From assembly GCA_977017645.1 (NCBI GenBank), contig OZ360234.1:17546001-17610000 (forward strand): a stretch of 64,000 nucleotides of DNA, given 5' to 3'. Shown here in pieces: positions 19,497 to 64,000 of this stretch. Source of the stretch: Torpedo marmorata. Its lineage: Eukaryota. A program made the translations under genes and the position numbers. The notes beneath the pieces are model-generated. The model made no database searches, was not told where the DNA came from, and was given only the letters and a program-made list of their open reading frames with translations. Within the stretch, counting starts at the first letter, position 1. Every line of letters starts with the position of its first letter.

Positions 19497-20950
19497 ATAA
19501 GTCAAGTCAAGTCAAGTCACCTTTATTTGTCGTTCATTACCATATACACAGTAAGACGAGATAGCATTTCTCCAGGACCATGGGCAGATGTACATAAATA
19601 TCATAATACAATAGAAAAAACTATAACATGCTAATAATAGGAATTGAGGAGCCTGATGGCTTGGGGGAAAAAACTGTTGCACAGTCTGGACGTACGAGCC
19701 CGAGTGCATCGGTACCTCCTTCCAGATGGCAAATGGGAAAACAGTTTACCAAAGGGGTGTGAGAAGTCCTTCACAATGTTATTAGCCTTCCTCATGCATC
19801 GTGTGTTGTAGATGTCTGTCATGGTGGGGAGAGAGACTCCAATAATTTTCTCCGCTGACCCCACTATCCTCTGCAGGGTCTTCCGGTCCGAGGTGGTACA
19901 GTTTCCAAACCAAACGGTGATGCAATTGCTCAGAATACTCTCAATGCATCCCCTGTAGAATGTAGTAAGGATAGGGGGTGGGAGATGAACTTTCCTCAGT
20001 CTTCGCAGGAAGTAAAGACGCTGCTGGGCTTTCTTGGCTATGGAACTGGTGTTGAGGGACCAGCTGAGACTCTCCGCCAAGTGCACTCCAAGAAACTTGG
20101 TACTCTTTACGACCTCAACGGTAGAGCCGTCCATGGTCAAAGGAGAATGATCCCCCCGGGCCCTTCTGAAGTCGACAACCAACTCTTTTGTTCACGTTCA
20201 GCTGCAGGTTGTTGTTTCCGCACCATTCCATTAGCGACTGCACCTCATCTCTGTATGCTGACTCATCGTTCTTCCTGATAAGGCGTTCAGAATCAGAATT
20301 TATTGTCATAAACATGTCACGAAATTGGTTGTTTTTCTGCAGTATCACAGTGAAAACATAAACTGCCTTAGAAAATAAATAAAAATTGTGCAAGAAAAAG
20401 TCAAAGTAAGGCAGTGTCTGTGGTTCATTGTTCATTCAGGAATCTGATGGCAGAGGGGAAGAAGCTGTCCTTCAGCAAGGTAACTCGGCAAGCAGTCCGT
20501 ATACTTTTCGTAGTTCACCCACAGAAGTTTGATAGCGTATTCCACATTGTCAAATCTCACAGTTCTTTGAAAGTAGAGGCGTTTGTGTGCCTTCTTCACC
20601 GTTGGCTCTAAGAGAGGTCTTCTGACATATTGGACACCACCAGGATCTTGAAGGTAATTGCCATCTCCATCTCAGTCCCATCAATAGTGTCATCAGCAAA
20701 TTTATAGATTGTGTTGGAGCCAAACTTGGCCATGCAGTCAAGAGTGTGCAGGGAACAGAGCAGCTTTGGGGCACCCGTGTTAATGGTCAGCGAAGAATAG
20801 GGGATGTTGCCGATCCGCAATGATTGGGGTCTGCCAATGAGGAAGCCAAGGATTCAGTGACAGAGGGATGAAAAGATTTGATCATACGTTTTGCTGGTAT
20901 TATGGTGTTGAATGCTGAGCTATAGTCAATGAACTGCAGCCTGATGTAGG
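19497..20950 (-). mobile_element. cluster of Rex-Babar LINE fragments
   Basis: ORF 19631-20182 (VDFRR, KFLGVH, KKAQQRLYFLRRL, FFPQAIRLLN) with a (tgact)n tail; a second tail at about 20285-20470; KFADD piece at 20608-20820. Confidence 0.85.
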
Positions 20951-26170: not shown

Positions 26171-26275
26171 GAAAAAATACCTCATTCACACAACCACTTT
26201 TTAATGTTTGAAGTAAGACCATGTTGGAAGGTGAGTGCTCCTGCAGGGGATTCAGATGACTAAATGGGACTGGGT

Positions 26276-29200
26276 TGTGGTAAACCACTATTGTACCACT
26301 GTATATATTATGGGCTGGGGCAAGCCTGATCATGTCCTGTCTGTCTGTCCCGGTGACTCCTCCCCCTCTCCCCTGGAATAAAGGCCTTGAGCCACTGACT
26401 CCACCCTCAGTTCCGGGACAGTCTAGTAGGGATCAACAGGTCTAAGTGTAGCTTAGCCCTGGCCTGAATTCTGGTAATAAAAGCCTATTGATCTCCTGTA
26501 CTTCTTGCCTTGAGTAAGTCATTGATAGGTATATCAATTTTATTACCAGTCTTAATCTGATGGAGAATTTTCTGAGGCCAGACAAGCTAGACATTGCCCC
26601 CCTGGCCCAAGACCCCGCAAGTACCTTCGAACTCTGGCTACGCTGCTTCATACCCTTCCTGAGGTCGACCAGAGCGGTCAGCGACGAGGACAAACTCGAC
26701 ATCCTCATGTCTAGGGTAAGCCCACGGGTGTATAACACCGTCAGAGACTGCGAAACGTACGATGCTGCCTTGGGAGCCCTTAAAAGGCTGTACCTGACGC
26801 CTGTGAACGCGGTCTACGCGAGGCACAGGTTATCGCAACGGCGCCAGCGACCCGGAGAGTCGATCTCCGAGTACATCCAGGACGTGCAGCTACTGGTGCG
26901 GGCGTGCGATTGCCGAGCCCTGACGGCTGAGCAACACGCTGAACTGTTGGCAAGGGACACGTTCATTATGGGGCTCAGGTCGGTTTACATTCGCCAGCGA
27001 TTGCTGGAACACGCCGACCTGACCCTGAAATCTACCGTCCAGACGGCCCTCACACTGGAGGCTGCGCTCAGGAACTCTGACGCTATGCAGGCGCAGCCTG
27101 CCTCGTGGATCGCCCCAACCGCCAGCTCTGCAAGCGACGTGACTGCCGCTGCCGTCTACCATGACCCGATCGCCGCCGCTGCCGCTATCCGTGAGTTGGC
27201 CGCCGCCGCCGCTACCCGGGAGCCCGCCGCCATCCGTGAGTTAACCGCCGCGGCCGTTACCCGGGAGCCCGAGAAGTGTTACTTCTGCGGGCTCGACAAA
27301 CACCCACGCAAACGCTGCCCGGCCCGAGACGCGACTTGTTCTAGCTGCGGCAAGAAAGGCCACTACGCTAAGGCCTGCCGCTCCAAGCCGCGTACGGGTC
27401 CGAGCAGCGCCGCGTGCGAAGTAAGGGAGCGGCCATCTTACCTGTCGTCACTTCCAGCGGTGACCTCGTGCGAGGAATGGAGGCGGCCATCTTGGCCCCC
27501 GGCACTTCCGATACCAGCACTTCCGGCGCGGCCATTTTATAGCCTCACCGCGGCACTTCCAGCACCGCCATCTTGCAGCGACACGTGCGACCTACGGGGG
27601 CTGCCATCTTCGTCAGCGTCGGATCAAGACGGCACGTCGGATCAAGACCACGTCCCGACCCTGGCATCCGTGACGCTGGATCAGAGCGCGCCCCATCAGC
27701 TGTCCAGATCGATGATGGACATATTAGTTGAGGGGCATAAGACTACCTGCCTGTTCGACACAGGCAGTACTGAAAGTTTTATCCATCCAGACACCGTCCA
27801 GCGCTGTGGCCTCACAATTGTACCGGTAAGCCAGAGGGTGGCCATGGCGTCTGGAACACACACAACAGACATCCGGGGGGGTTGTGTGGCGAACATAGTG
27901 GTACAGGGCACGGAATATCGGGGGTTTTCATTGTTGGTCATGCCCCGTTTGTGTGCTCCTGTATTGCTGGGACTGGACTTCCAAAGCCACCTGCTAAGCG
28001 TCACCATGCACTATGATGGGCCCCACCCTCCGATCGTAGTGACTAACCCCGAGTATTTGAGTAATACGCCCCAGACTACCTGTGGTCTCTCCACGCTGAA
28101 GATCCAACCCCCGTCACCTTTCGCCAACCTGACCCCTGACTGTAAGCCTGTAGCAACTAAAAGTAGGTGATACAGTGCAGGGGACAGGGCATTCATTAAG
28201 GCGGAGGTGCATCGTCTACTGGGGGAAGGGATCATCGCACCCAGTAACAGCCCCTGGAGAGCTCAGGTAGTCGTAGTGAAGAACGGGGCCAAGAGCCGGA
28301 TGGTGGTGGACTACAGTCAGACCATTAACCGGTTCACGCAACTGGATGCCTATCCGCTGCCGAGAATCGCGGATATGGTCAACCAGATTGCGCAGTACAA
28401 AATCTTTTCCAACATTGACCTAAAGTCGGCATACCACCAACTTCCGATTCGCCGGGAAGACCGAGCGTACACCGCTTTCGAGGCGGACGGCAGGTTATTC
28501 CATTTCCTGCGCGTCCCCTTCGGGGTAACAAACGGGGTATCTGTGTTTCAACGGGAGATGGACAGGATCGTTGACCAGTTCAAACTCACTGCCACCTTCC
28601 CGTACCTGGACGACATCACCATTTGTGGTCATGATCGCCAGGATCACGATAGGAACCTTCGGAAGTTCCTGCAGGCGGCCAAGACGCTGAACCTCACATA
28701 TAACAAGGAGAAATGCGTGTTCGGGACTACCCGACTCGCTATCCTGGGGTGTGTCGTGGAGAACGGGGTGATTGGACCCGACCCCGACCGCATGCGCCCC
28801 CTGTTGGAACTTTCGATTCCCCATACCCCCAAAGCCCTTAAACGATGCCTCGGGTTCTTCTCGTATTATGCGCAGTGGGTCCCAAACTACGCGGACAAAG
28901 CCCGACCCCTCGTCAAGTCCACCAAGTTTCCCCTGGCAGCGGAGGCACGTGAGGCTTTCGACCTCATAAAAGGGGACATCGCCCGAGCAGCGATGCACGC
29001 GGTGGACGAGTCGGTACCTTTTCAGGTAGAGAGTGACGCATCGGACTTCGCACTGGCTGCTACCCTCAACCAGGCGGGAAGACCGGTAGCGTTTTTCTCC
29101 CGCACCCTTCAAGGCCCCGAAATTCGGCACTCCGCGGTAGAGAAAGAGGCCCAAGCCATAGTTGAGGCTATTCGGCACTGGAGGCACTATCTCGCCGGAA

Positions 29201-30892
29201 AACGTTTTACCCTGCTGACGGACCAGCGCTCCGTCGCATTCATGTTTAACAACCAGCAGCGGGGTAAAATCAAAAATGATAAAATCATGAGGTGGAGAAT
29301 AGAACTCTCCACCTACAATTACGACATCCTTTACCGGCCCGGGAAGCTCAACGAGCCCTCCGATGCTCTATCCTGGGGATCGTGCGCCAGCACGCAGATC
29401 GACCGGTTATACTCCCTCCATTGCGACCTCTGCCACCCAGGAGTTATAAGGCTGTTCCACTTCATAAAAGCACGGAACCTGCCTTACTCCCTGGAAGAGG
29501 TCAGGACCATGACCAGCAGCTGCCGAGTCTGTGCGGAGTGCAAACCGCAATTCTACCGCCCCGACAAGGCACAGCTGGTCAAGGCCACCCGCCCTTTTGA
29601 ACGTCTCAGTATCGACTTCAAGGGCCCCCTTCCCTCCACGAACCGCAACGTGTACTTTCTTAATATTATCGACGAGTACTCGCGGTTCCCCTTTGCCATC
29701 CCCTGCCCCGATACCTCGGCAGCTTCGGCTATTAAAGCCCTCCGCCAGGTATTCACCTTGTTCGGGTTCCCCTGCTATGTCCATAGCGACTGGGGATCCG
29801 CGTTCATGAGTGAGGAACTGCGGCAGTACTTGCAGACCCGAGGCATCGCCACCAGTAGGACCACGGGGTACAACCCACGGGGAAACGGACAGGTGGAGAG
29901 GGAGAACGCCACTGTATGGACAGCTACGCTACTGGCCCTGAAATCAAAAGGGTGGCCAGTGGCCCGCTGGCAAGAGGTTCTCCCGGACGCCCTCCACTCT
30001 ATACGATCCCTGTTATGTACCTCCACAAACACTACCCCTCACGAACGTCTTTTTCCTTCCCTAGAAAATCGACCACCGGAACTACCCTCCCTACCTGACT
30101 GACGTCCCCGGGACCGGTGCTACTCTGCAAACACCTTCGGAGTAGCAAGTACGAGCCCTTGGTCGAGAGGGTGCAGCTGACCCATGCGAACCCGCAGTAC
30201 GCATTCGTGGTCTTCCCCGACGGGCGGGAAGACACGGTGTCAATACGGGACCTGGCGCCTGCAGGAGCGTTGGAAGAGGTCCCCGACAGCGGGAACGCCT
30301 GGTCACAGCTGCCCCCTCCGCCTCCCAGCACGGCGGGTACAACGCCCCAGCCGGAGCTGGACGAGCCACAAGCCAGGCAGGAGGCAACCCGGACCCAGAC
30401 CCCCCCCACCCTCGTTCCACAACCACAATCATCGCCCGCGCCATCACCGCAGGTCTTACGTAGGTCGCAGCGGCGAGCCCGACCGCCGGATAGACTCAAC
30501 CTGTAGAGGTGATGGTTGCGGCAACCCTACTATGTAAATAATTTGTTTATATTTGTGTGCGCGGGATATTAATTACGGTAATTACGGTGACCACTTCGCC
30601 CCCCCATCGGATTTGTTTTAAAAGGGGTGAATGTGGTAAACCACTATTGTACCACTGTATATATTATGGGCTGGGGCAAGCCTGATCATGTCCTGTCTGT
30701 CTGTCCCGGTGACTCCTCCCCCTCTCCCCTGGAATAAAGGCCTTGAGCCACTGACTCCACCCTCAGTTCCGGGACAGTCTAGTAGGGATCAACAGGTCTA
30801 AGTGTAGCTTAGCCCTGGCCTGAATTCTGGTAATAAAAGCCTATTGATCTCCTGTACTTCTTGCCTTGAGTAAGTCATTGATAGGTATATCA
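26276..30892 (+). mobile_element. full-length Gypsy LTR retrotransposon A (4617 bp)
   Basis: 261-bp LTRs at 26276-26536 and 30632-30892 (TG..CA, identical by eye), 5-bp TSD tgggt, polypurine tract aaaaggggtgaa, PR-RT-RH-IN domain order. Confidence 0.97.
26560..30506 (+). pseudogene. gag-pol polyprotein of element A (disrupted)
   Basis: Two CCHC knuckles (CYFCGLDKHPRKRC, CSSCGKKGHYAKAC), protease LFDTGS, RT YLDD, RNase H ESDAS, integrase H..CH..C..C and SIDFKG..E. In-frame TGA at 28168-28170 and a frameshift near 30060. Confidence 0.93.
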
Positions 30893-30970
30893 TGGGTAGG
30901 GCTGACAAAAATGAAGGCTAGATGACACACAATTATATACATTGGGAAGCCTGTTTGAAGGGTGGTGTCA

Positions 30971-33900
30971 TGTGGTAAACCACTGTTTAGGTGTATTGTG
31001 TGCTAGGGTGTAGTATGGGTATGTCCTGCTGTCTGTCCCGGTGTCTCCTCCCCCTCCCCTGGTTGTCCCGGTAATCCCTCCTCTTTCCTCACCTGAATAA
31101 AGGCCCTTGTGCCACCGCTCCGCCCCCAGTCCGGGATCAGATCTGCAGACCAACTGTAGCTGTGTTTATAGTTAATAAAAGCCTATGGTTCGTTTCCACT
31201 CATAGTCTCTTGAGTGATTATTGATAGGCCTATCAATTTTATTAACTATTAAAATCCGATGGAGAGCGCTCTAAGACCGGACCGATTGGACAACGACCCT
31301 CTAGCTCCTGATGCCGGTAATTCTTTTGAACACTGGCTACGCTGTTTCGAGTCCTTTCTGACGACGATCAAAGCAGAAAGCGAGGACCAGAAATTGGAGG
31401 TCCTCGTGTCCAGGGTAAGCCCTCGGGTATTCTCGACGATTCGCGACTGTAAAACCTACACGGAGGCGATGGACGCGCTGAAGAGAATCTATGTTACGCC
31501 TGTTAACGCGGTCTACGCAAGGTACCGACTATCAACGCGAAAACAGCGGGCCAGGGAGTCGATCGTTGAGTTTGTCAGGGACATACAGTCGCTGGTGCGA
31601 GCGTGCGACTGTAAGGTGCTGACTGCAGAGGAACACGCTGAATTGCTGGAGAGGGACACGTTCATCATGGGGATCAGGTCGGTATACGTGCGCCAGCGGC
31701 TGCTGGAGCACGCCGACCTGGACCTCCGTACCGCGGTTGCAATGGCCCACACGCTGGAGGCCACGCTGCGGAACTCGGACGCCATGCAGGCGCGCGACCT
31801 CCAGCCTGCCGCGTGGTCAGCCCCGTCCCCCAACCCTGCCAGCCATCTGACCGCCGCCTCCGTTTGCCGCGACCTGTTCGCAGCCGCCGCTATCCACGAA
31901 CTCACTGCCGCAGCCGTTAACCGCGAGCCCGAGAAGTGCTACTTCTGCGGGCTCGATAAGCACCAAAGAAAACGCTGCCCGGCCCGCGACGCGACTTGCT
32001 CTAGCTGCGGCAAGAAAGGCCATTATGCAAAGGCCTGCCGCTCTAAGCCGCGCGCGGGTCCGAGCAGCGCCGCGTGCGAGATACGGGAGCGGCCATCTTA
32101 CCTGCTGTCGTTTCCGGCGTCGACCTCGTGTGAGGAGTGGAGGCGGCCATCTTTGATGCTGGCACTTCCGGCGCCGCCATCTTATAGCACGACATCTGTA
32201 CTTCCGGCACTTCCGGCGCCGCCATCTTGCAGCGCGAGCAGCAGCGACACGTGCAACCCACGGGAGCGGCCATCTTTGTCAGCTTCGGATCAAGACGACT
32301 ACATCCCGACCCTAGCATCCGTCACCCTCGACCAGAGTGTTCCCCACCAGCTGTCGCGATCCATGATGGACATCCTGGTGGAGGGGCACAAGACCACTTG
32401 CCTATTTGATACTGGCAGCACGGAGAGTTTCATTCACCTGGACACTGTTCAGCGCTGTGGCCTGACTACCATACCGGTAAGCCAGAGGGTGGCCATGGCG
32501 TCTGGGTCACACACAACAGACATCCGGGGTGCTTGTGTGGCGAACATTGTAGTACAGGGGACAGAGTATCGGCAATTCTCGTTATTTATTATGAATCGTT
32601 TGTGTGCGCCGGTATTACTGGGTCTTGACTTTCAGAGCCACTTACGGAGTGTCACAATGTGATATGACGGTCCCCACCCTGCGATCACTGTAGCGAACCA
32701 CCAGTTCCTGGACAACACGCCTCAGACTACCTGTGGTCTCGCTGCACCTCCGCCTTGATAAACGCTCTGTCCCCCGCACTGTATCGCCCCCGTCGTTATT
32801 CGCCAACCTGACCCCTGACTGTAAGCCGGTGGCAACCAAGAGCAGGCGATACAGTGCGGGGGACAGAGCATTTATCAAGGCGGAGGTGCAGCGATTATTA
32901 CAGGAGGGGATTATTGAGAAAAGTAATAGCCCCTGGAGAGCCCAGGTAGTCGTAGTAAAAGGGGCCAAGAGTAGGATGGTGGTGGACTACAGCCAAACCA
33001 TTAACCGATTCACGCAGCTGGACGCATATCCGCTACCACGAATAGCGGATAAAGTGAATGAAATAGCCCAGTATAGGCTATTTTCAACGATAGACCTAAA
33101 ATCTGCATACCATCAGCTCCCTATCCGTCGGGAGGACCGTTCGTACACCGCGTTCGAGGCGGATGGCAGGCTGTTCCATTTCCTGCGCGTCCCTTTCGGG
33201 GTCACAAATGGTGTGTCAGTATTCCAGCGGGAGATGGACAGGATTGTTGATCACTATAAACTTAAAGCCACTTTCCCATACCTGGACGACATTACCATCT
33301 GTGGTCATGATGGTCAGGACCATGACAACAACCTTCGGAGGTTCCTGCAGGCGGCCAAAGCATTAAACCTCACGTATAATAAAGACAAATGCGTGTTTGG
33401 TACCACCCGCCTCGCCATTTTGGGGTGTGTGGTCGAGAACGGGGTTATTGGACCCGACCCCGACCGCATGCGGCCCCTGCTGGAACTCCCGCTTCCCCAC
33501 ACCCCCAAAGCCCTTAAACGATGCCTCGGGTTCTTCTCATACTATGCGCAGTGGGTTCCCAATTATGCTGATAAGGCCCGACCCCTTGTAAAATCCACCG
33601 CATTTCCCCTTGCTTCGGAGGCACGTAAGGCGTTTGACCTTATAAAAGGGGACATTGCACGAGCAACAATGCACGCGGTGGATGAAGAGACACCTTTTCA
33701 GGTAGAGAGCGACGCATCGGACTTCGCGCTGGCTGCTACCCTCAACCAGGCGGGAAGGCCGGTGGCGTTTTTCTCACGGACCCTCCAAGGCCCCGAAATT
33801 CGGCACTCCGCGGTGGAGAAGGAAGCCCAGGCCATAGTGGAAGCCATCAGGCACTGGAGGCACTATCTCGCCGGTAAGCATTTTACCCTGCTGACAGATC

Positions 33901-35533
33901 AACGCTCTGTGGCTTTTATGTTCAACAATCAGCAGCGGGGTAAGATCAAAAATGACAAGATCATGAGGTGGAGAATAGAACTCTCCACCTACAATTACGA
34001 CATCCTTTACCGGCCCGGGAAGCTCAATGAGCCCTCCGATGCTCTATCCCGGGGATCATGCGCCAGCGCGCAGATCGACGGGTTACACGCCCTACATGAC
34101 GACCTATGCCACCCAGGAGTTACCAGGCTCTTTCACTTTGTGAAGTCACGGAACCTGCCATACTCCCTGGAAGAGGTCAGGACAATGATCAGCAGTTGTC
34201 GGGTTTGCGCGGAGTGCAAACCTCAGTTCTATCGCCCCGACAAGGCACAGCTGGTCAAAGCCACCCGCCCTTTTGAACGTCTCAGCATTGACTTCAAGGG
34301 CCCCCTTCCCTCCACGAACCGCAATGTGTATTTTCTGAATATTATTGATGAGTACTCGCGGTTCCCCTTCGCCATCCCCTGCCCCGACACTTCGGCTACC
34401 TCAACCATTAAAGCTCTTCACCAGGTATTTACGCTATTTGGCTTCCCGAACTATATACATAGTGACCGGGGATCAGCTTTTATGAGTGAGGAGCTGCGAC
34501 AGTATCTGCTGACCCGAGGCATCGCCACTAGTAGGACCACAGGTACAACCCCCGGGGAAATGGACAGGTGGAAAGGGAGAACGCCACGGTCTGGAAGGCC
34601 GCGCTCCTGGCTCTCAAGTCCAGGGGACTGCCGGTCTCCCGCTGGCAAGAGGTCCTCCCTGAAGCCCTCCACTCTATCCAGTCCCTGCTGTGCACGTCCA
34701 CAAATGCAACCCCTCACGAACGACTTTTCTCCTTCCCCAGGAAGTCGAACACCGGAACCATCCTACCTGCCTGGCTGATGTCCCCGGGACCCGTGCTGCT
34801 CCGCAACCACCTTCGGAGCAGCAAATATGAGCCGACGGTCCAGAGGGTGCAGTTAGCGCACGCTAACCCACAGTATGCCTACGTGGTCTTCCCTGATGGG
34901 CGAGAGGACACGGTGTCAATTCGTGACCTGGCGCCCGCTGGAGCGCCGGGAGAAACCCTCGACGGGCAAGACCACTTGCTGCAGCCCCTCCCCATTCCCC
35001 CTCCCAGCACGTCAGCCCCAGCACCCTCGCCGGGACCGGATACGCCACAAGAAGCCAGGCAGGAGGCGACCTTGCAGACAATCCTGCCATCTCCCCCATC
35101 ACCACAACCCGCCCCGTCACCACGGGTACTGCGCAGGTCGCAGCGGCGAATCAGACCACCGGATCGCCTTGACCTGTAAAATTGAATGTAAATATATCTG
35201 TTTTGTGTCTGTAAAATAGTCACTGTGGTCACTTCACCCCGCTGGACTCTTTTAAAAGGAGGGGTGAATGTGGTAAACCACTGTTTAGGTGTATTGTGTG
35301 CTAGGGTGTAGTATGGGCATGTCCTGCTGTCTGTCCCGGTGTCTCCTCCCCCTCCCCTGGTTGTCCCGGTAATCCCTCCCCTTTCCTCACCTGAATAAAG
35401 GCCCTTGTGCCACCGCTCCGCCCCCAGTCCGGGATCAGATCTGCAGGCCAACTGTAGCTGTGCTTATAGTTAATAAAAGCCTATGGTTCGTTTCCACTCA
35501 TAGTCTCTTGAGTGATTATTGATAGGCCTATCA
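30971..35533 (+). mobile_element. full-length Gypsy LTR retrotransposon B (4563 bp), sister family of A
   Basis: 265-bp LTRs at 30971-31235 and 35269-35533 (four transitions seen), 5-bp TSD tgtca, polypurine tract aaaaggaggggtgaa. Confidence 0.97.
31259..35179 (+). pseudogene. gag-pol polyprotein of element B (disrupted)
   Basis: Same domains as A. TGA at 32660-32662, frameshifts near 32740 and 34550, C-terminus RRSQRRIRPPDRLDL. Confidence 0.93.
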
Positions 35534-35819
35534 TGTCATTGTTAAGCAGCATGGAGGCGTTCAGCTGCAAATCGGAGCTCCGAGTTTGATGTAAACTCAC
35601 AGCCCATCCATTCCAGCCTGGAACTGTTGGCTAACTCCGTTTGTACACATCAGGGTCGAACAAAGATGCAACTTCCATCAAAGCCTTAGCAACAGCCACC
35701 CAATGCCTGAGTGGTGCAGCAGAAGTTCAGACTACTGGCATCATTTCTATAGACTACAGAGATTTGTGGCATTTTATAGCAGTAGTACAATCTGTACTCT
35801 AACACACGTTACTCCTGAC

Positions 35820-37760
35820 AATAGTTTAATGAAGCACAAATATGCCAGGCTGTTGTTCATTGACTTCAGCTTGGTGTTTAACATGATCATATCTCAGAGG
35901 CTGGTGGATAAAGTGTCCTCGCTGGGACTCAACACCCCACTCTGCAACTGGATTCTGGACTTCTTGACAGAAAGATCAGTCTGTCTAGGTTGGCAACAAA
36001 ACCTCAAGTCCCATGACACTGAGCAATGGCGCACCTCAGGGGTGTGTGCTCAGCCTGCTGCTACTGCTGTTCACACTGCTGACTTATGTCTGCACTGCCA
36101 GGTTCAGTTCCAACAGAATCAGCAAATTTGCAGATGTAGTTGGCCTTATCAGCAACAGTGATGAGTCACATTACAGAGAGGAGGTGGAAAGGCTCGTAAA
36201 ATGGTGCGAAAACAATAACCTGAATCTCAACATGGACAAGATAAAGGAGATGTTTGTGGACTTCAGGAGAATGAAGGTCAATGGTTCTCCACTACACATC
36301 AATGTTTGTGTCGTGGAAAGAGTGGAGAGTACAGTTCCTTGGCCTGCATATAAGGAACAACCTATCCTGGACTCACAACACCTCCTCATTAGTCAGGAAG
36401 GTGCAGCAGTGCCTACACTTCCTAAGGAGGCTGAGGCAAGGCCACCGACCCCCTTGACAACCTTTGACAGGAGCACAATTCAGTGTGCTGTGTGGCTGCA
36501 TCATTGTATCTGCAAAGCATCGGTCTGGAAGTCTATACAGAAGATCATTAAAACAGCTGAGAGGATCACTGGGGTCTTCCTTTCCTCTGCAGATGACATT
36601 TACTGTGAGTGCTGTCTAAAGAGGGCTCAAGGAATTATAGAAGACCCCTTCCATCCAGCACACTGTATCTTCAACCCACTACCATCAGAAAAAAGGTGCA
36701 GGAGCATCAAAATCAGGACTGCCAGGCTGGGGAATAGCTTCTTCTGACAAGCTGAGATTGATAAACAGTATCCTGTAACTGTGACAATCATCCCAAATAT
36801 TTATATTGAGTATTTATGTGATCTTTATGTACTGTGTATTGTGTGTTTTTGTGCGTGCACTTTGGTCTGGAGCAGGGGCCCCCAAACCTTTTAGACCATC
36901 GACCCCTTCATGCAATCCTTGATCCCTCATCGACTCCCAGGCATGTACAAATAAATTTAAAAAAAAATAAATAAATGATAATAATAATAATTGTTTCATT
37001 AGTAAACTAAGGTACAAATCCAAATTTCAAATACTCTTGTGAATATTGTCGGCACCTAGTCCAAGCATTAGCGGCCGCCATTGTGCTTACTAGAAATGTG
37101 GCAAATTTACACAGTAAATGCACAGCTATCAGTTCACTGACACCACTCCGATAGCTATGGGGTTGAGTATGCACTGGCTGTCTCTGGACTAGTTGGCGCC
37201 TTTGGACAGGAAATGACGCGGCCGGAATACTCAGCCTAGCGTTGCCACAACCCAGATTTTCGTTACGTACTTGAAAATAAAGCTTAAGGCTAAGCTAAAA
37301 CGTTTTAAAATGTTACAAGACTACAATGCTAATGATGAATAATATAGTTAATACATTTATCGATTATTTAAAAAAAGAGCATCGTCATGTGATTCCAACT
37401 AATAATAAATTATTATAACAATATTATTATCATTATGTTTCAGTAAACAGAATATAAAATAAATAGACAATAAAAACTAATTATATATAAATCAGAAATG
37501 TGTAGAAATCAAGTTGTATTTTATGTACCGGTATTTTTATTTCTTATACAAATGTCAGCTTTCGACCCCAAAAGTTAAATCGACCCCCTGGCGTTTATCG
37601 ACCCCCTTTTGACCCCCAGGTATTTATCGACCCCTTGGATAGGCCCATCAACCCCCAGGGGTCGATATCAACCACTTTGGAGACCCCTAGTCTGGAGAGA
37701 CGCTGTTTTGTCAGGTTGTATATACGGTATATAATCAGTTGATAATAAACTTGAACTTGA
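35820..37760 (+). mobile_element. decayed Rex-Babar LINE interrupted by a hAT element
   Basis: [25 protein letters not shown] and HPAH.IF.PLPS; the tail resumes after 37697 and ends aataaacttgaacttgaa. Confidence 0.85.
36873..37689. mobile_element. non-autonomous hAT (Charlie-like) DNA transposon
   Basis: Imperfect TIRs caggggcccccaaa / tttggagaccccta, 8-bp TSD gtctggag (36865-36872 and 37690-37697), multiple subterminal tcgacccc motifs at both ends. Confidence 0.88.
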
Positions 37761-42120: not shown

Positions 42121-43225
42121 TCAGAATCAGAATTTATTGTCATGAACAAGTCACGAAATTCGGTGTTTTGCAGCAGCATCATAGTGCAAACATTCATATT
42201 ATGAACCATCTTACAACAATAATATAAAAAATAAAAATAGTAGTGCACGAAAAGTAAGGCAGTGTCTTTGGTTCATTGATTACCGTATTCAGGAATCTGA
42301 TGGCAGAGGGGAAAAAGCTGTCCTTGTGCCGCTGAGTGCTCGTCTTTAGGCTCCTGTACCTTTTTCCCGATGGTATAGTGAAGAGGGCATGGCCTGGGTG
42401 GTGGGGGTCTTTGAGGATAGAGGCTGCTTTTTTAAGACACCGCCTCATGTTGATGTCCTCGATGGAGTGGAGTCTGGTGCCTATGATGTTGCAGGCCGAG
42501 TTCACAATCCTCTGGAGTTTTTTCTTGACCTGAGATTTGGCGCCTCCATACCAGACAGTGATGCAACCAGCCAGTATTCTCTCCACGGTACACTTGTAGA
42601 AGTTTTCGAGAGTCTTCGGTGACATGCCGGATCTCCTCAAGCACCTCACAAAGTATAGCCGCTGGCTGGAATTCTTCGTGATTGCATCAACATGGAGGCT
42701 CCAGGACAAATCCTCGGAGATGTTGACACCCAGGAATTTGAAGTTCTTGACCCTCCACTACTGAGCCCTCGATGAGGACTGGGTCGTGTTCCCCTGACTC
42801 CCTCCTGAAGTCCACAATCATCTCCTTGGTTTTGCTAACGTTGAGCGCAAGGTTGTTGTTGTGACACCACTCAACGAGCTGATCTATCTCCTTCTTGTAC
42901 ACTTCCTCATTTCCGTTTGTGATTCTGCCGACAACTGTGGTGTCATCGGCAAACTTGTAGATAGCATTGGAATTGTTCCTGGCCACAGTCATGGGTGCAT
43001 AATGAGTAGAGCAGTGGGCTTAAGCACGCATCCTTGGGGTGCGCCTGTGTTGATAATCAGTTGCTTCAAATTCGTACTGACTGTGGTCTTCCGATGAGAA
43101 AGTCAAGGATCCAATTGCAGAGTGGGGTACAGAGGCCCAGAGTTTGTAGCTTCTTGACCAGCACTGAGGGAATAATGGTATTGAAGGCTGAGCTGTAGTC
43201 GATGAAGAGCAGCCGTACGTATGGT
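42121..43225 (-). mobile_element. Rex-Babar LINE 3' portion
   Basis: [40 protein letters not shown] and (ttctga)n tail. Confidence 0.9.
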
Positions 43226-45800: not shown

Positions 45801-46377
45801 TGCAAATAATGTATGTGCTCCCTTTTTCACATTTATATAACTTTCTAGCAACCAAGAGCTTTAATAAAACATGAATTTGAAATAATTAGGAAAATCAATC
45901 CAACAGCCAATGACAAACACCATTTTCAAACTTACAGCAATGGTCTGTGCTAAATTATAAAATGGCAAGAATGTCCCAGGATTGAATTTAAGGCAGGGCT
46001 GACGTGGACCATCTCAGTCTCTTTCATGTCAGGAAATAAAAGCAGCTTTTGATGATTTTTTTTATTGGACTGGGAATTGGAAAGTGCTCGTAGATCCAGC
46101 AAATTGTTCATGGCAGAGATCATGTAACATTATGTGAAGGAAAGGTTGTCTTGAACTGTGATGTTAATGCCATGCATGGATAAAGGTTTATCATCCATTT
46201 CTGTGATTGGTGGTTTTGCACAGCATTCAATTACTGCCTGCATTGGTACTGTATCTGCTTGTACCAGTTTTCTGGGATCACAACATGGATGCAGCTTTTT
46301 TAATGAGTGGGACACTGATAATTAAAAAAAAAAAACACTTTGTGACTTAATTCAATAGTACTTGTTTGTGTTTCAGC

Positions 46378-47142
46378 ATGATGAGTGAGTATTGGACTCC
46401 AATTGCGAAGCAGTATAACCCACTAAAAGCTGGAAGCATTGATGGCACAGATGAAGAGCCCCACGACCGAGCTGTCTCAAGGGCAATTGCAGCCACATAC
46501 AGACCGAATAAGGGTGTTATAGGAGATCCCCACCTGACCCTCTTTGTTGCCAGGTTGAATCCTCAGACATCTGAAGAAAAATTAAAAGATACTTTCTCAC
46601 GATTTGGAGACATCCGTAGACTGAGGCTTGTGCGGGACATTGTCACTGGATTTTCCAAATGCTATGGTTTCATCGAATACAAGGACGAGCGTTCATTATT
46701 AAAGGCACATCGGGATAGCAATAAATTAGTGGTGGACCAAAATGAAATATTTGTGGATTTTGAATTGGAACGGTCTTTGAAAGGCTGGGTTCCACGGAGA
46801 TTTGGTGGAGGTTTAGGAGGTAAAAAGGAATCTGGCCAGCTGCGGTTTGGTGGGCGGGATCGTCCGTTTAGGAAGCCTTTCAGCCTGCCAGCGTTGAAAG
46901 CAGAATTGTACACTGAAGGACCAGCTGACAAACTGGATAGAACAAGGGATAACTGGCAGTGGGAAAGAGGTCGAGATCGGGACAGGCGAAGAGAGGAGAG
47001 GGGTGAGGAAAGAGAAAAGCATGGTGGAGACAGGGAGCGATACAGAAGTCGGGAAAGGGATCATAAACGCCAAAGAGATGAAGATCGATATAAAGATGAA
47101 GACAGACACCAACGTAGAGAGAAACATAAAACACGACGGTAG
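46378..47142 (+). CDS. SNRNP35: U11/U12 small nuclear ribonucleoprotein 35 kDa protein
   Basis: W.PIAK.Y.PLKAGSIDGTDE.PHDRA, RRM (TLFVARLN..RDIVTGFSKCYGFIEY), GWVPRRFGGGLGGKKESGQLRFGGRDRPFRKP and an RD/RE-rich tail. Acceptor tttcag ends at 46376, just before the ATG. Confidence 0.97.
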   Translation: MMSEYWTPIAKQYNPLKAGSIDGTDEEPHDRAVSRAIAATYRPNKGVIGDPHLTLFVARLNPQTSEEKLKDTFSRFGDIRRLRLVRDIVTGFSKCYGFIEYKDERSLLKAHRDSNKLVVDQNEIFVDFELERSLKGWVPRRFGGGLGGKKESGQLRFGGRDRPFRKPFSLPALKAELYTEGPADKLDRTRDNWQWERGRDRDRRREERGEEREKHGGDRERYRSRERDHKRQRDEDRYKDEDRHQRREKHKTRR

Positions 47143-61962: not shown

Positions 61963-62940
61963 ATCAGAATCAGATTTTATTGTCATGAACAAGTCATGAA
62001 ATTCGGTGTTTTTGCGGCAGCATCACAGTGCAATTAACATTCATATTATAACCATCTTATGACATTACTATAAAAAATTATAAATAATAGTGCACGAAAA
62101 GTAAGGCAGTGTCTGGTTCATTGATTATTCAGGAATCTGATGGCAGCGGGGAAGAAGCTGTCCTTGTGCCGTTGAGTGCTCGTCTTTAGGCTCCTGTACC
62201 TTTTTCCCAATGGCAGCAGAGTGAAGAGGGCATGGCCTGGGTGGTAGGGGGCCTTGAGGATAGAGGCTGCTTTTTTAAGAGACCGCCTCATGTAGATGTC
62301 CTCGATGGAGTGAAGTTTGGTGCCTGTGATGTCACAGGCTGAGTTAACAACCCTCTGGAGTTTACTCTTGTCCTGAGAGTTGGCGCCTCCATACCAGGCA
62401 GTGATGCAACCAGCCAGAATGCTCTCCACGGTACACCTGTAGAAGTTTACAAGAGTCTTCGGTGACATACCGAATCTCCTCAGACACCTCACAAAGTATA
62501 GCCGCTGACGAGCCTTCTTTGTGATTGCATCAATGTGGAGGCTCCAGGATAGATCCTCGGAGATGTTGAAACCCAGGAATTTGAAGTTCTTGACCCTCTC
62601 CACTACTGAGCCCTCGATGAGGACTGGGTCATGTTCCTCTGACTTCCTCCTGAAGTCCACAATCACCTCCTTGGTTTTGCTGACGTTGAGCTCAAGGTTG
62701 TTGTCGTTACACCATTCAACGAGCTGATCTATCTTCCTCCTGTACGCTTCCTCATTGCCGTTTGTGATTCTGCCAACAACTGTGGTGTCATCGGCAAACT
62801 TGTAGATGGCATTGGAATTGTGCCTGGCCACACAGTCATGGGTGTATAACGAGTAGAGCAGTGGACTAAGCACGCATCCTTGGGGTGCGCCTGTGTTGAT
62901 AATCAGTGAGGAGGAGACGTTGTTTCCAATTCGTACTGAC
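61963..62940 (-). mobile_element. young Rex-Babar LINE 3' portion
   Basis: Uninterrupted 274-aa [36 protein letters not shown] plus tail. Confidence 0.93.
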
Positions 62941-64000
62941 ACCTTCTATGCCCGCTTTGAGAAGAACAAAACAGTGCCTAATAGAATCCCTGAAAAGGCT
63001 GAGGACCCTGTGATATCTGTCTCTGAGGGCGACGTCAGAACATCATTCAAGAGGGTGAACCCTCGCAAGGCGTCAGGCCCTGACGGCGTACCTGGCAGGG
63101 TATTGAAAATCTGCGCCAACCAACTAGCCGGAGTGTTCACGGACATTTTCAACCTCTCATTGCGGCAGTCAGAGGTTCCCACCTGCTTCAAAAGGGCATC
63201 AATCATCCCGGTACCCAAGAAGAGTAGTGTGAGCTGCCTCAACGACTACCGCCCAGTAGCACTAACTTCTACTGTGATGAAATGCTTTGAGAGGCTGGTC
63301 ATGGCCAGAATTAACACATACCTAAGCAAAGATCTGGACCCACTGCAATTCGCCTATCGCCACAATCGCTCCACAGCAGATGCAATATCGCTGGCTCTCC
63401 ACTCAGCTCTGGATCACCTCGAAAACAGCAATTCATACATACGGTTGCTCTTCATCGACTACAGCTCGGCCTTCAATACATTATTCCCTCAGTGCTGGTC
63501 AAGAAGCTACTAACTCTAGGCCTCTGTACCCCCCTCTGCAACTGGATCCTTGACTTTCTCATCGGAAGATCACAGTCAGTACAAATTGGAAACAACGTCT
63601 CCTCCTCACTGATTATCAACACAGGCGCACCCCAAGGATGCGTGCTTAGTCCACTGCTCTACTCGTTATACACTCATGACTGTGGCCAGGCACAATTCCA
63701 ATGCCATCTACAAGTTTGCCGATGACACCTCAGTTGTCGGCAGAATCACAAACGGCAATGAGGAAGTGTACAGGAGGGAGATAGATCAGCTCGTTGAATG
63801 GTGTAATGACAACAACCTTGAGCTCAACGTCAGCAAAACCAAGGAGATGATTGTGGACTTCCGGAGGAAGTCAGGGGAACATGACCCAGTCCTCATCGAG
63901 GGCTCAGTCGTGGAGAGGGTCAAGAACTTCAAATTCCTGGGTGTCAACATCTCCGAGGATCTGTCCTGGAGCATCCACGTGGATGCAATCACAAAGAAGG
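62941..64000 (+). mobile_element. young Rex-Babar LINE, inverted relative to its neighbour, runs off the window
   Basis: [52 protein letters not shown] and KFADD; two frameshifts. Confidence 0.93.

Follow-up and report, generated by a model that had tools for sequence, protein, structure and literature searches.

The window analysed here, 64,000 nucleotides of Torpedo marmorata DNA (contig OZ360234.1, forward-strand positions 17,546,001 to 17,610,000), contains two young, complete Gypsy insertions, element A (26276-30892) and element B (30971-35533). Both are flanked by 5-bp target duplications, and their LTR pairs match at 261/261 positions in A and 261/265 in B. The LTRs run from TG to CA, a polypurine tract is present, and the domain order is protease, reverse transcriptase (RT), RNase H and integrase, which places both elements in the Ty3/Gypsy group. 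Each gag carries two CX2CX4HX4C motifs, in keeping with an earlier note that had described these as double-CCHC elements. Coordinates are collected in Table 1.

Table 1. Features of elements A and B, in positions of the window
Feature	Position	Strand	Remarks
Target-site duplication of A, TGGGT	26271..26275		second copy 30893-30897
5' LTR of A	26276..26536	+	261 bp, same sequence as the 3' LTR, TG...CA
GAATAAAGG upstream in the LTR of A	26376..26384	+	putative TATA-like element, or alternatively a poly(A) signal
Initiator-like TCAGTTC of A	26407..26413	+	predicted transcription start 26409
Self-primer arm of A	26471..26482	+	AATAAA at 26476-26481; predicted cut 26482/26483
Stacked second helix of A	26483..26530	+	GCCTAT 26483-26488 with ATAGGT 26525-26530; G-U tolerated
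Primer-binding position of A	26538..26549	+	perfectly complementary to the arm, beginning 1 nt past the LTR end
gag, with two CCHC knuckles, and protease of A	26560..28170	+	in-frame stop ahead of RT
RT, RNase H and integrase core of A	28171..30102	+	frame terminates early in the integrase tail
Polypurine tract of A	30618..30631	+	
3' LTR of A	30632..30892	+	
5' LTR of B	30971..31235	+	265 bp; target duplication TGTCA 30966-30970 / 35534-35538
TATA-like GAATAAAGG and initiator-like CCAGTCC of B	31095..31132	+	predicted start 31128
Self-primer arm of B	31168..31180	+	AATAAA at 31174-31179
Stacked second helix of B	31181..31229	+	31181-31186 with ATAGGC 31224-31229
Primer-binding position of B	31237..31249	+	exact complement of the arm
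gag-pol of B	31259..35179	+	three broken open frames: 31259-32662, 32694-34778, 34535-35179
3' LTR of B	35269..35533	+	polypurine tract 35252-35268 just before

Neither 5' LTR is followed by a TGG-type tRNA site. The sequence at the primer position is the exact reverse complement of a segment inside the element's own LTR, over 12 bp in A and 13 bp in B, and in both elements this LTR segment, the arm, terminates in AATAAAA. A second helix is stacked beside the first in A and in B, and the LTR end lies in a 7-nt bulge. All of this had been read from the two elements in the earlier note and is confirmed here. Taken singly, the two regions fold with modest z-scores (-2.2 and -2.9), and the strong evidence for pairing is comparative.

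That compensatory change preserves the pairing, first proposed from A and B, is borne out across the family. The genome contains 35,219 matches to a gag-start pattern, and 100 copies, chosen by gag alone, were scored at 12 positions each (1200 cells). The primer-site helix, helix 1, was Watson-Crick paired in 1177 cells, with 3 G-U pairs and 20 mismatches; pairing over the 12 bp was perfect in 81 copies, and 23 different perfect 12-mers occupied the primer site. At each of two helix-1 positions four different pair types were seen, and the 23 distinct perfect pairs gave 115 paired cells, compared with a maximum of 80 in 10,000 shuffles of the primer sites. The helix measures 12-14 bp and begins 1 nt after the LTR end, with a sharp 5' edge formed by a spacer base that is unpaired in all 100 copies. 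The adjacent helix, a stacked RCCT/AGGY, holds 85 G-U pairs in 600 cells. The arm terminates in AATAAA or ATTAAA in 96/100 copies, GAATAAAGG lies upstream of it in 96/100, and the distance from GAATAAAGG to the A of an initiator-like CAGT is 32 nt in 66/100, counting exact matches. An ATG follows 22-41 nt past the LTR end.

Step counts, obtained by parsimony on a tree of the copies, separate the two helices. Both partners change at once in 37 of 62 helix-1 steps, compared with 1 of 33 in the adjacent helix and 5/73 and 5/68 in slid controls, although recombination between LTR and gag can inflate such counts. Two helix-1 positions had 13 arm-side changes each against a gag third-position mean of 9, with 12 of those steps being double. 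Because both partners change together so much more often than in the adjacent helix, the sequences suggest that copies of the LTR segment enter the primer site, which is what a primer would do. A genome-wide census of one position returned 7,418 standard copies, 9 arm-only variants, 6 site-only variants and 2 doubles, both complementary, where independence predicts 0.007 doubles. Eight of the arm-only variants are confined to the 5' LTR and one is in both LTRs. Both doubles have the variant in both LTRs, and one comes from a family where that pair is common, which leaves a single clean case.

The pairing extends to distant relatives, of which 28 of 45 scorable loci reach 11-12 of 12 pairs, a score obtained in 4 of 1800 shuffles. 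At 5 of these 45 loci there was no pairing. The paired relatives, many of them marine, constitute one RT clade without a chromodomain, with elements of 3.9-4.7 kb and LTRs of 150-270 bp. Trichuris and Actinostola have named relatives as well. From rays to these distant relatives the stacked helix is retained at the predicted cut with differing loop lengths. Six of nine distant LTRs have no poly(A)-type hexamer other than that of the arm, and some distant arms terminate in GTTAAA or TTTAAA with pairing intact. A simple search for a third duplex of the Tf1 type, which a weak or family-specific helix could escape, gave a mean of 6.6 observed and 7.0 shuffled (43 variants), and a conserved or tRNA-like fold upstream of the arm was rejected (mean z 0.09; 4/43 below -1.5). 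Neither single-sequence searches of metagenome and viral contigs nor an alignment-based search of the viral ones gave a match.

No TGG occurs in the first 6 nt after the LTR in any of the 100 copies. Against 28 host tRNA genes, a sample of nine isotypes without those needed for a positive control, the best match is 6-8 nt long. The non-chromodomain status assigned earlier also agrees with our searches: seven long polyproteins contained no chromodomain at E<=0.1 and no Tf2-type SH3 match, and genome-wide there were 15 chromodomain matches among 95 candidates versus 35,219 gag starts. A Tf2-type SH3 search meant to supply an in-genome chromovirus control yielded, in the 12 loci examined, elements that have integrase ahead of RT and that served as outgroup.

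The earlier note had also called the elements Mag-like and had envisaged an RT phylogeny against Tf1/sushi and Mag clades. In a quick tree of unnamed elements alone, the ray elements and their paired relatives form one clade (SH-aLRT 100) apart from tRNA-primed outgroups. The Mag lineage (Mag, SURL, Gulliver, CFG1) consists of small single-ORF Gypsy elements with no chromodomain and a CCHC gag, traits that the ray elements share. Mag-like as a statement of membership is not supported, however, when judged by outgroup elements that we take to be Mag-type: these have TGG sites of the TGGCGACGAG tRNA type, which the ray elements lack, share 31-35% RT identity with the ray clade and fall outside it. 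On a crude score, the RT-RNase H of the ray elements reached 182 bits against Ty3, lower than the 250 bits that an unrelated animal Gypsy reached against it. Neither the protein atlas nor the names of clusters supplied a name for the clade, and motif searches through the literature, supplements included, were equally negative. Cigr-1 of Ciona intestinalis (RepeatMasker LTR/Gypsy-Cigr) is about 4.2 kb long with short LTRs and a single ORF, and in these respects it resembles the ray clade. Should the clade be Cigr-1, the lineage is already named and only its priming mode may be new. The Cigr-1 clade has been reported in molluscs (PMC6238403). One supplement table files Cigr-1 under 'Mag', with no sub-clade given, and a sister relation to Mag is therefore possible.

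We consider it likely that these elements prime minus-strand DNA with an RNA segment of their own LTR, the cut that frees it being predicted immediately 3' of AAUAAA(A). This would be Tf1-like self-priming, probably in a separate lineage, with a paired segment that terminates on the likely poly(A) hexamer. Self-priming after a cut 3' of AATAAAA, as first proposed, is the best explanation of the family-wide pairing and double-sided changes, the cut itself being a prediction. Transcription would start at the initiator-like A, some 50-75 nt upstream of the cut and not at the primer, a start predicted because the spacing between the TATA-like and initiator-like motifs is fixed. The 5' copy of the arm would then pair with the primer site, a fold that would mask the 5' poly(A) hexamer as well, and the element's own RNase H would cut where the two helices meet, as reported for Tf1. 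RT would copy 35-56 nt up to the cut and jump to the RNA 3' end, which must lie beyond the cut, so that polyadenylation would have to be signalled by the arm hexamer. Finally, the primer would be copied by plus-strand DNA, and arm mutations would in this way enter the primer site without a second mutation.

Parts of this scheme meet opposing observations. The predicted start lies far upstream of the cut, unlike in Tf1, and since no third duplex was found either, the way Tf1 is cut may not apply here. Nothing was found to explain why copying would halt after 12-14 nt; the upstream segment has no conserved fold. An upstream AATAAA in ray LTRs could be the poly(A) signal, in which case the jump to the RNA 3' end would fail. 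With processed copies as poly(A) markers, one match lay downstream of the arm hexamer and none downstream of the upstream AATAAA; this single copy was not counted, being rearranged and ambiguous, with an A14 run that sits at a T-run some 34 nt past the hexamer. Alignment of three contig sets with the window gave no information on transcript starts or ends.

The same LTR segment might instead prime in trans, coming from short LTR-ending RNAs (made by solo LTRs, or by termination at the 5' poly(A) signal) or from a second packaged genome, and trimmed to the helix end. We regard this as unlikely. It would yield the same copying signature and is compatible with the upstream AATAAA as the true poly(A) signal, and the presence of a poly(A)-type hexamer on nearly every arm makes short LTR-terminated RNAs plausible. 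However, in rays and distant relatives alike the stacked helix starts right at the predicted cut although loop lengths differ, which fits a cis fold that presents the cut site, and Tf1 priming has been reported in cis. Less probable again is that the helix merely hides the 5' poly(A) signal for read-through of the first LTR, with priming by, for example, a tRNA fragment elsewhere. RNA structure hides the 5' poly(A) signal in HIV-1, a precedent for such a role, and the near-constant hexamer at the arm end, its being the sole one in most of the nine distant LTRs, and the presence of the partner strand only at the RNA 5' end would all be expected. Yet selection for structure alone should permit G-U pairs as the adjacent helix does, whereas helix 1 has 3 in 1200 cells and changes on both sides at a neutral rate; its partner begins 1 nt past the LTR end, the required primer position, ahead of the ATG; the distant arms ending in GTTAAA or TTTAAA still pair; and among the nine host tRNA isotypes sampled no match is longer than 6-8 nt.

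That the genomic RNA, ending on the arm in its 3' repeat, bends back and primes at the primer site with no 5' cut seems very improbable. The arm is in both LTRs, as are the double variants, and for this reason DNA does not identify the primer donor. Such a loop nevertheless requires an RNA ending exactly on AAUAAAA with no poly(A) tail, would leave no free 3' repeat for the first jump, as judged from the standard LTR cycle, and leaves the local stacked helix unexplained. The double changes could also reflect DNA-level correction of an inverted repeat, by chromosomal template switching or gene conversion, and one of the first 100 copies (L279) is rearranged with its junction exactly at the arm/primer-site identity. 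This is already disfavoured and hardly credible: for none of the 8 variants confined to the 5' LTR does the primer site show a matching correction, the adjacent helix goes uncorrected (1/33) despite its shorter loop, and the element would be left with no primer.

To our knowledge, self-priming has so far been proven only in the yeast element Tf1. In Tf1 the initial 11 nt of the RNA serve as primer, within a three-duplex fold; RNase H is reported to cut between bases 11 and 12 (PMC7175516) and the primer to be copied into cDNA (PMC11042837). Like Tf1 and Tf2 of Schizosaccharomyces pombe, Tj1 and the Tf1/sushi chromoviruses, the ray elements are Ty3/Gypsy elements with no tRNA site and with post-LTR sequence complementary to an LTR segment (bioRxiv 2022.12.06.519325, PMC7175516, PMC4600332, PMC11042837). 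Shared with the Tf1/sushi group are also a helix stacked beside the primer duplex and a primer copied into cDNA, the latter suggested by sequence in the ray elements. Unlike that group, the ray elements have no chromodomain or Tf2-type SH3 match, and the duplex of their clade, 12-19 bp, ends on a poly(A)-type hexamer; in contrast to Tf1, whose RNA begins with the primer, theirs is predicted to start 50-75 nt ahead of the cut, and two duplexes were found where Tf1 forms a three-duplex 'pretzel'. For the Tcn1 chromoviruses of plants and Copia elements of the TAR type (Houba, Osr-1), self-priming has also been predicted, on the grounds that at least 10 bp, beginning 0-5 bp past the LTR, are complementary to it (PMC6317226). 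The ray elements show this same complementarity of at least 10 bp but represent other lineages and hosts, and the portions of that report considered here give neither a covariation or copying test nor a poly(A)-signal link (PMC6317226).

The literature cited here treats self-priming as a mark of Tf1/sushi chromoviruses and adds predictions for Tcn1 of plants and for TAR among Copia elements; the ray elements would be a variant of this known mechanism. It is tempting, though we rate it slightly below an even chance, to propose the fuller picture of a pan-animal chromodomain-less Gypsy clade, with more than 35,000 copies in one vertebrate genome, in which self-priming would have arisen separately from Tf1/sushi, the primer would be an internal, capped fragment of 50-75 nt with its 3' end at the poly(A) hexamer, one helix would both prime and silence the 5' poly(A) signal, and the primer site would drift at a neutral rate through copying. 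The contrast between a strict, double-sided helix and a wobble-tolerant neighbour provides a sequence-only test for priming that is usable on any LTR family, and the overlap of primer and poly(A) signal offers a direct test of first-LTR read-through in short-LTR elements. If self-priming is true, a widespread animal Gypsy clade, including a very abundant family in a 6.2-Gb genome, replicates without host tRNA, and tRNA-free priming would be a repeated outcome among LTR elements. It would also explain why annotation based on tRNA sites misses or under-rates such elements, and these elements would escape control by 3' tRNA fragments.

We show that the two Gypsy elements of the window, A and B, carry one base past the 5' LTR a primer site that is the exact complement (12 nt in A, 13 nt in B) of a stretch of the LTR that ends in AATAAAA, hereafter the arm. 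A second helix is stacked on this primer helix in both, with the LTR end inside a 7-nt bulge; pairing, second helix and bulge are thus all present as the earlier note described them. Both elements encode gag with the two CCHC knuckles that it reported, protease, RT, RNase H and integrase, in reading frames that are broken in each. A and B point the same way and are separated by only 78 bp (30893-30970). Each is flanked by a target duplication of its own; they are two independent side-by-side insertions. Their LTRs start (26276-26288, 30971-30983) with TGTGGTAAACCAC, a small hairpin (GTGGT/ACCAC) that most of the ray copies inspected share. We take the host exon listed below to resemble U11/U12 snRNP 35K. 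The genome also holds a second abundant Gypsy group with integrase before RT (loci L187-L198, L297 and L298; 41,875 first-look PF24626 candidates), presumably Gmr1-type.

Features of the window
Feature	Position	Strand	Details
Gypsy element A	26276-30892	+	LTRs 261 bp, mutually identical; target duplication TGGGT
Arm / primer site of A	26471-26482 / 26538-26549	+	
Gypsy element B	30971-35533	+	LTRs 265 bp, 261/265 identical; target duplication TGTCA
Arm / primer site of B	31168-31180 / 31237-31249	+	
Host-gene open exon	46351-47142	+	RRM domain (Pfam, E 3e-17); Arg/Asp/Glu-rich tail
LINE remnants	19631-20191, 42194-42757, 62118-62945	-	RT and/or ALKBH8_N (Pfam)
LINE remnants	35989-36747, 62857-63513	+	RT and/or ALKBH8_N (Pfam)

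The closest matches among named proteins come from rays and catsharks (about 75-86% identity), and a degenerate gag-start pattern, blind to the LTR, has 35,219 matches in the 6.2-Gb genome versus 1 for the reversed control. We scored 100 copies: A, B, one further copy and 97 of the first 100 matches listed, leaving out an identical duplicate and two copies without the anchor motif, one with a perfect 14-bp helix and the other the rearranged locus L279. The copies were anchored on short motifs that lie at the end of the LTR and behind the arm, which biases toward pairing at positions 1-3, not 4-12. Over 12 positions, 1177 of 1200 cells are Watson-Crick, 3 are G-U and 20 are mismatches; 81 copies pair perfectly, and pairing continues in 73% at position 13, 62% at 14 and 34% at 15. 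Covariation, which the earlier note proposed to test on genome-wide copies, is seen among 23 distinct perfect 12-mers: 115 cells are paired, whereas 10,000 trials with shuffled primer sites averaged 58 and never exceeded 80. A pair-counting tool agrees, with two-sided change in 75 cells, a figure that none of 500 shuffles matched and that compares with 7-25 in slid controls; because this run used 31 of 51 hand-picked representatives, several of the 20 omitted having mismatches, the 100-copy count is the fair figure. One locus, L200, is a chimera: the arm of its 5' LTR comes from one family, its primer site and the arm of its 3' LTR from another (LTRs 94% alike). It probably arose by recombination between two genomic copies.

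No copy among the 100 has TGG within the first 6 nt after the LTR, which extends the earlier observation that a TGG-type PBS is missing. The comparison with host tRNAs that the earlier note proposed agrees as far as a sample of 28 genes from only 9 isotypes reaches, the longest match being 6-8 nt; the stronger argument against a tRNA site is that the primer site tracks the LTR through 23 versions. An ATG lies 22-41 nt past the LTR end and therefore leaves scant space for another primer site.

In the standard LTR cycle, plus-strand synthesis copies the primer into the new primer site. This copying, described for Tf1 in PMC11042837, is therefore expected to impose strict Watson-Crick pairing and joint change of both partners, whereas a helix maintained by selection alone should contain wobble pairs. 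The two stacked helices differ in just this manner: both partners change together in 37 of 62 steps in the primer helix, while the second helix has 85 G-U pairs in 600 cells and changes on both sides in 1 of 33 steps. On the arm side of the primer helix, position 8 and position 9 have 13 changes apiece, no fewer than the average of 9 for gag third positions; 12 of the steps there are double. LTR-gag recombination can raise step counts; slid controls, with identical linkage, show double changes in 5/73 and 5/68 steps. Joint changes could also come from correction at the DNA level, and here position 8, counted across the genome for one family group, is informative (7,418 standard, 9 arm-only, 6 site-only, 2 double). 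Both doubles are complementary, with 0.007 expected under independence, and carry the variant in both LTRs; the family of one commonly has that pair, leaving one clean case. Eight arm-only variants are confined to the 5' LTR and are post-insertion mutations; none is mirrored in the primer site, which makes DNA-level correction extremely improbable. The ninth, present in both LTRs, is the expected intermediate.

The underlying feature is real and self-priming is likely; we think it probable, from these patterns, that the elements prime in cis with their own LTR segment of the RNA. The 5' arm would anneal to the primer site, masking the 5' poly(A) hexamer, and RNase H would cleave at the junction of the two helices. 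RT would then make a 35-56 nt strong-stop DNA and jump to the 3' repeat, which must reach past the cut, and plus-strand synthesis would copy 12-14 nt of primer. A conserved fold upstream of the arm that could stop copying at that length was not found. An identical LTR-segment primer supplied in trans would give the same joint changes, and we consider it unlikely. A helix that serves poly(A) hiding alone would account for the hexamer, found in the arm of 96/100 copies (AATAAA in 79, ATTAAA in 17); set beside the joint changes of the primer helix, it is still less probable, and priming by the 3' end of the RNA is very improbable. Locus L279 (424-1495; G000:C1, from 10898557) resembles an inserted solo LTR, with a target duplication of 5 bp; between its U3 and U5 lie about 820 nt, in inverted orientation, from primer site, leader and gag. 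The junction falls exactly at the arm/primer-site identity, and the locus may be an aberrant reverse-transcription product.

The ray LTRs contain a second, upstream GAATAAAGG in 96/100 copies. An initiator-like CAGT follows it at 32 nt in 66 copies (exact match) and at 31-34 nt in 6 more, the remaining 24 having variant CA motifs at similar spacing; the interval between GAATAAAGG and the arm, by contrast, ranges over 81-106 nt. We predict that GAATAAAGG acts as a TATA-like box, which would place starts at 26409 and 31128 and yield a primer fragment of 50-75 nt; a possible alternative is a poly(A) signal with cleavage at the initiator-like CA. The arm hexamer is the sole poly(A)-type hexamer in 6/9 distant LTRs; of the other three, one has an extra hexamer downstream, one has it downstream only and one has none. 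In one relative (L091, 1994-2156), GTTAAA closes the arm and an AATAAA stands apart from it, 23 nt short of the end of the LTR; the primer and the poly(A) signal thus seem to be separable.

Relatives comprise 87 loci from metagenomes and MAG contigs (RT identity 43-66%), 45 of them with a gag start and upstream DNA. Pairing reaches 11-12/12 in 28 of these (16 distinct arms by our own reading, many being copies from one assembly), 10/12 in 9 and less in 8; shuffles reach 11 in 4/1800 and 10 in 46/1800. In three of the 8 low scorers, a perfect helix of 10-14 bp lies beyond the limits of the scan. The other five show no pairing, an outcome that the earlier note would count against self-priming if seen in intact family members; two of the five are close to the start of a contig. 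In the relatives, the helix (10-19 bp) begins about 1 nt past the CA and runs to TAAA, behind which most have an RCCT...AGGY hairpin of varying loop length. Animal Gypsy elements make up several bacterial MAG contigs and a record labelled 'Wolbachia plasmid' (L171-L186, L363), which are most likely host contamination.

In a quickly computed RT tree of 72 rows, none of them a named Tf1, sushi, Mag or Cigr-1 sequence (support by SH-aLRT only; four further rows removed for short matches), all pairing elements belong to a single clade (61 rows, support 100). The clade includes named proteins, known by protein and not by LTR, from sea anemone, coral, sea slug, spider, flukes, tapeworm, nematodes, rays and catshark; by resemblance, the lineage may be Cigr-1. 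Outgroup elements (31-34% RT identity) have TGGCGACGAG sites. The elements were rightly called non-chromodomain: none was found in 7 long polyproteins, and genome-wide there are 15 chromodomain matches among 95 candidates.

As published, the first 11 bases of Tf1 pair with its primer site, with an RNase H cut between 11 and 12 (PMC7175516); its three-duplex fold is common to Tf1/sushi chromoviruses (bioRxiv 2022.12.06.519325; PMC4600332); plant Tcn1 elements and TAR elements (Copia) are predicted to self-prime as well (PMC6317226); Skipper has neither a tRNA site nor LTR complementarity (PMC5006619); and bivalve TRIMs have no tRNA site, with no mechanism proposed (PMC6934838). Our search of the full-text literature did not find any animal Gypsy clade outside the chromoviruses described as self-priming; an earlier mention, e.g. 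in Butler 2001, Goodwin and Poulter 2001, Repbase, Dfam or GyDB, is possible. The clade would work like Tf1 in its priming mode; neither the chromodomain nor the third duplex of Tf1/sushi chromoviruses was found in it, and it probably differs from Tf1 in not having the primer at the RNA 5' end. Tentatively, these elements may combine an independent origin of self-priming, an internal cut and a primer that ends on the poly(A) signal.
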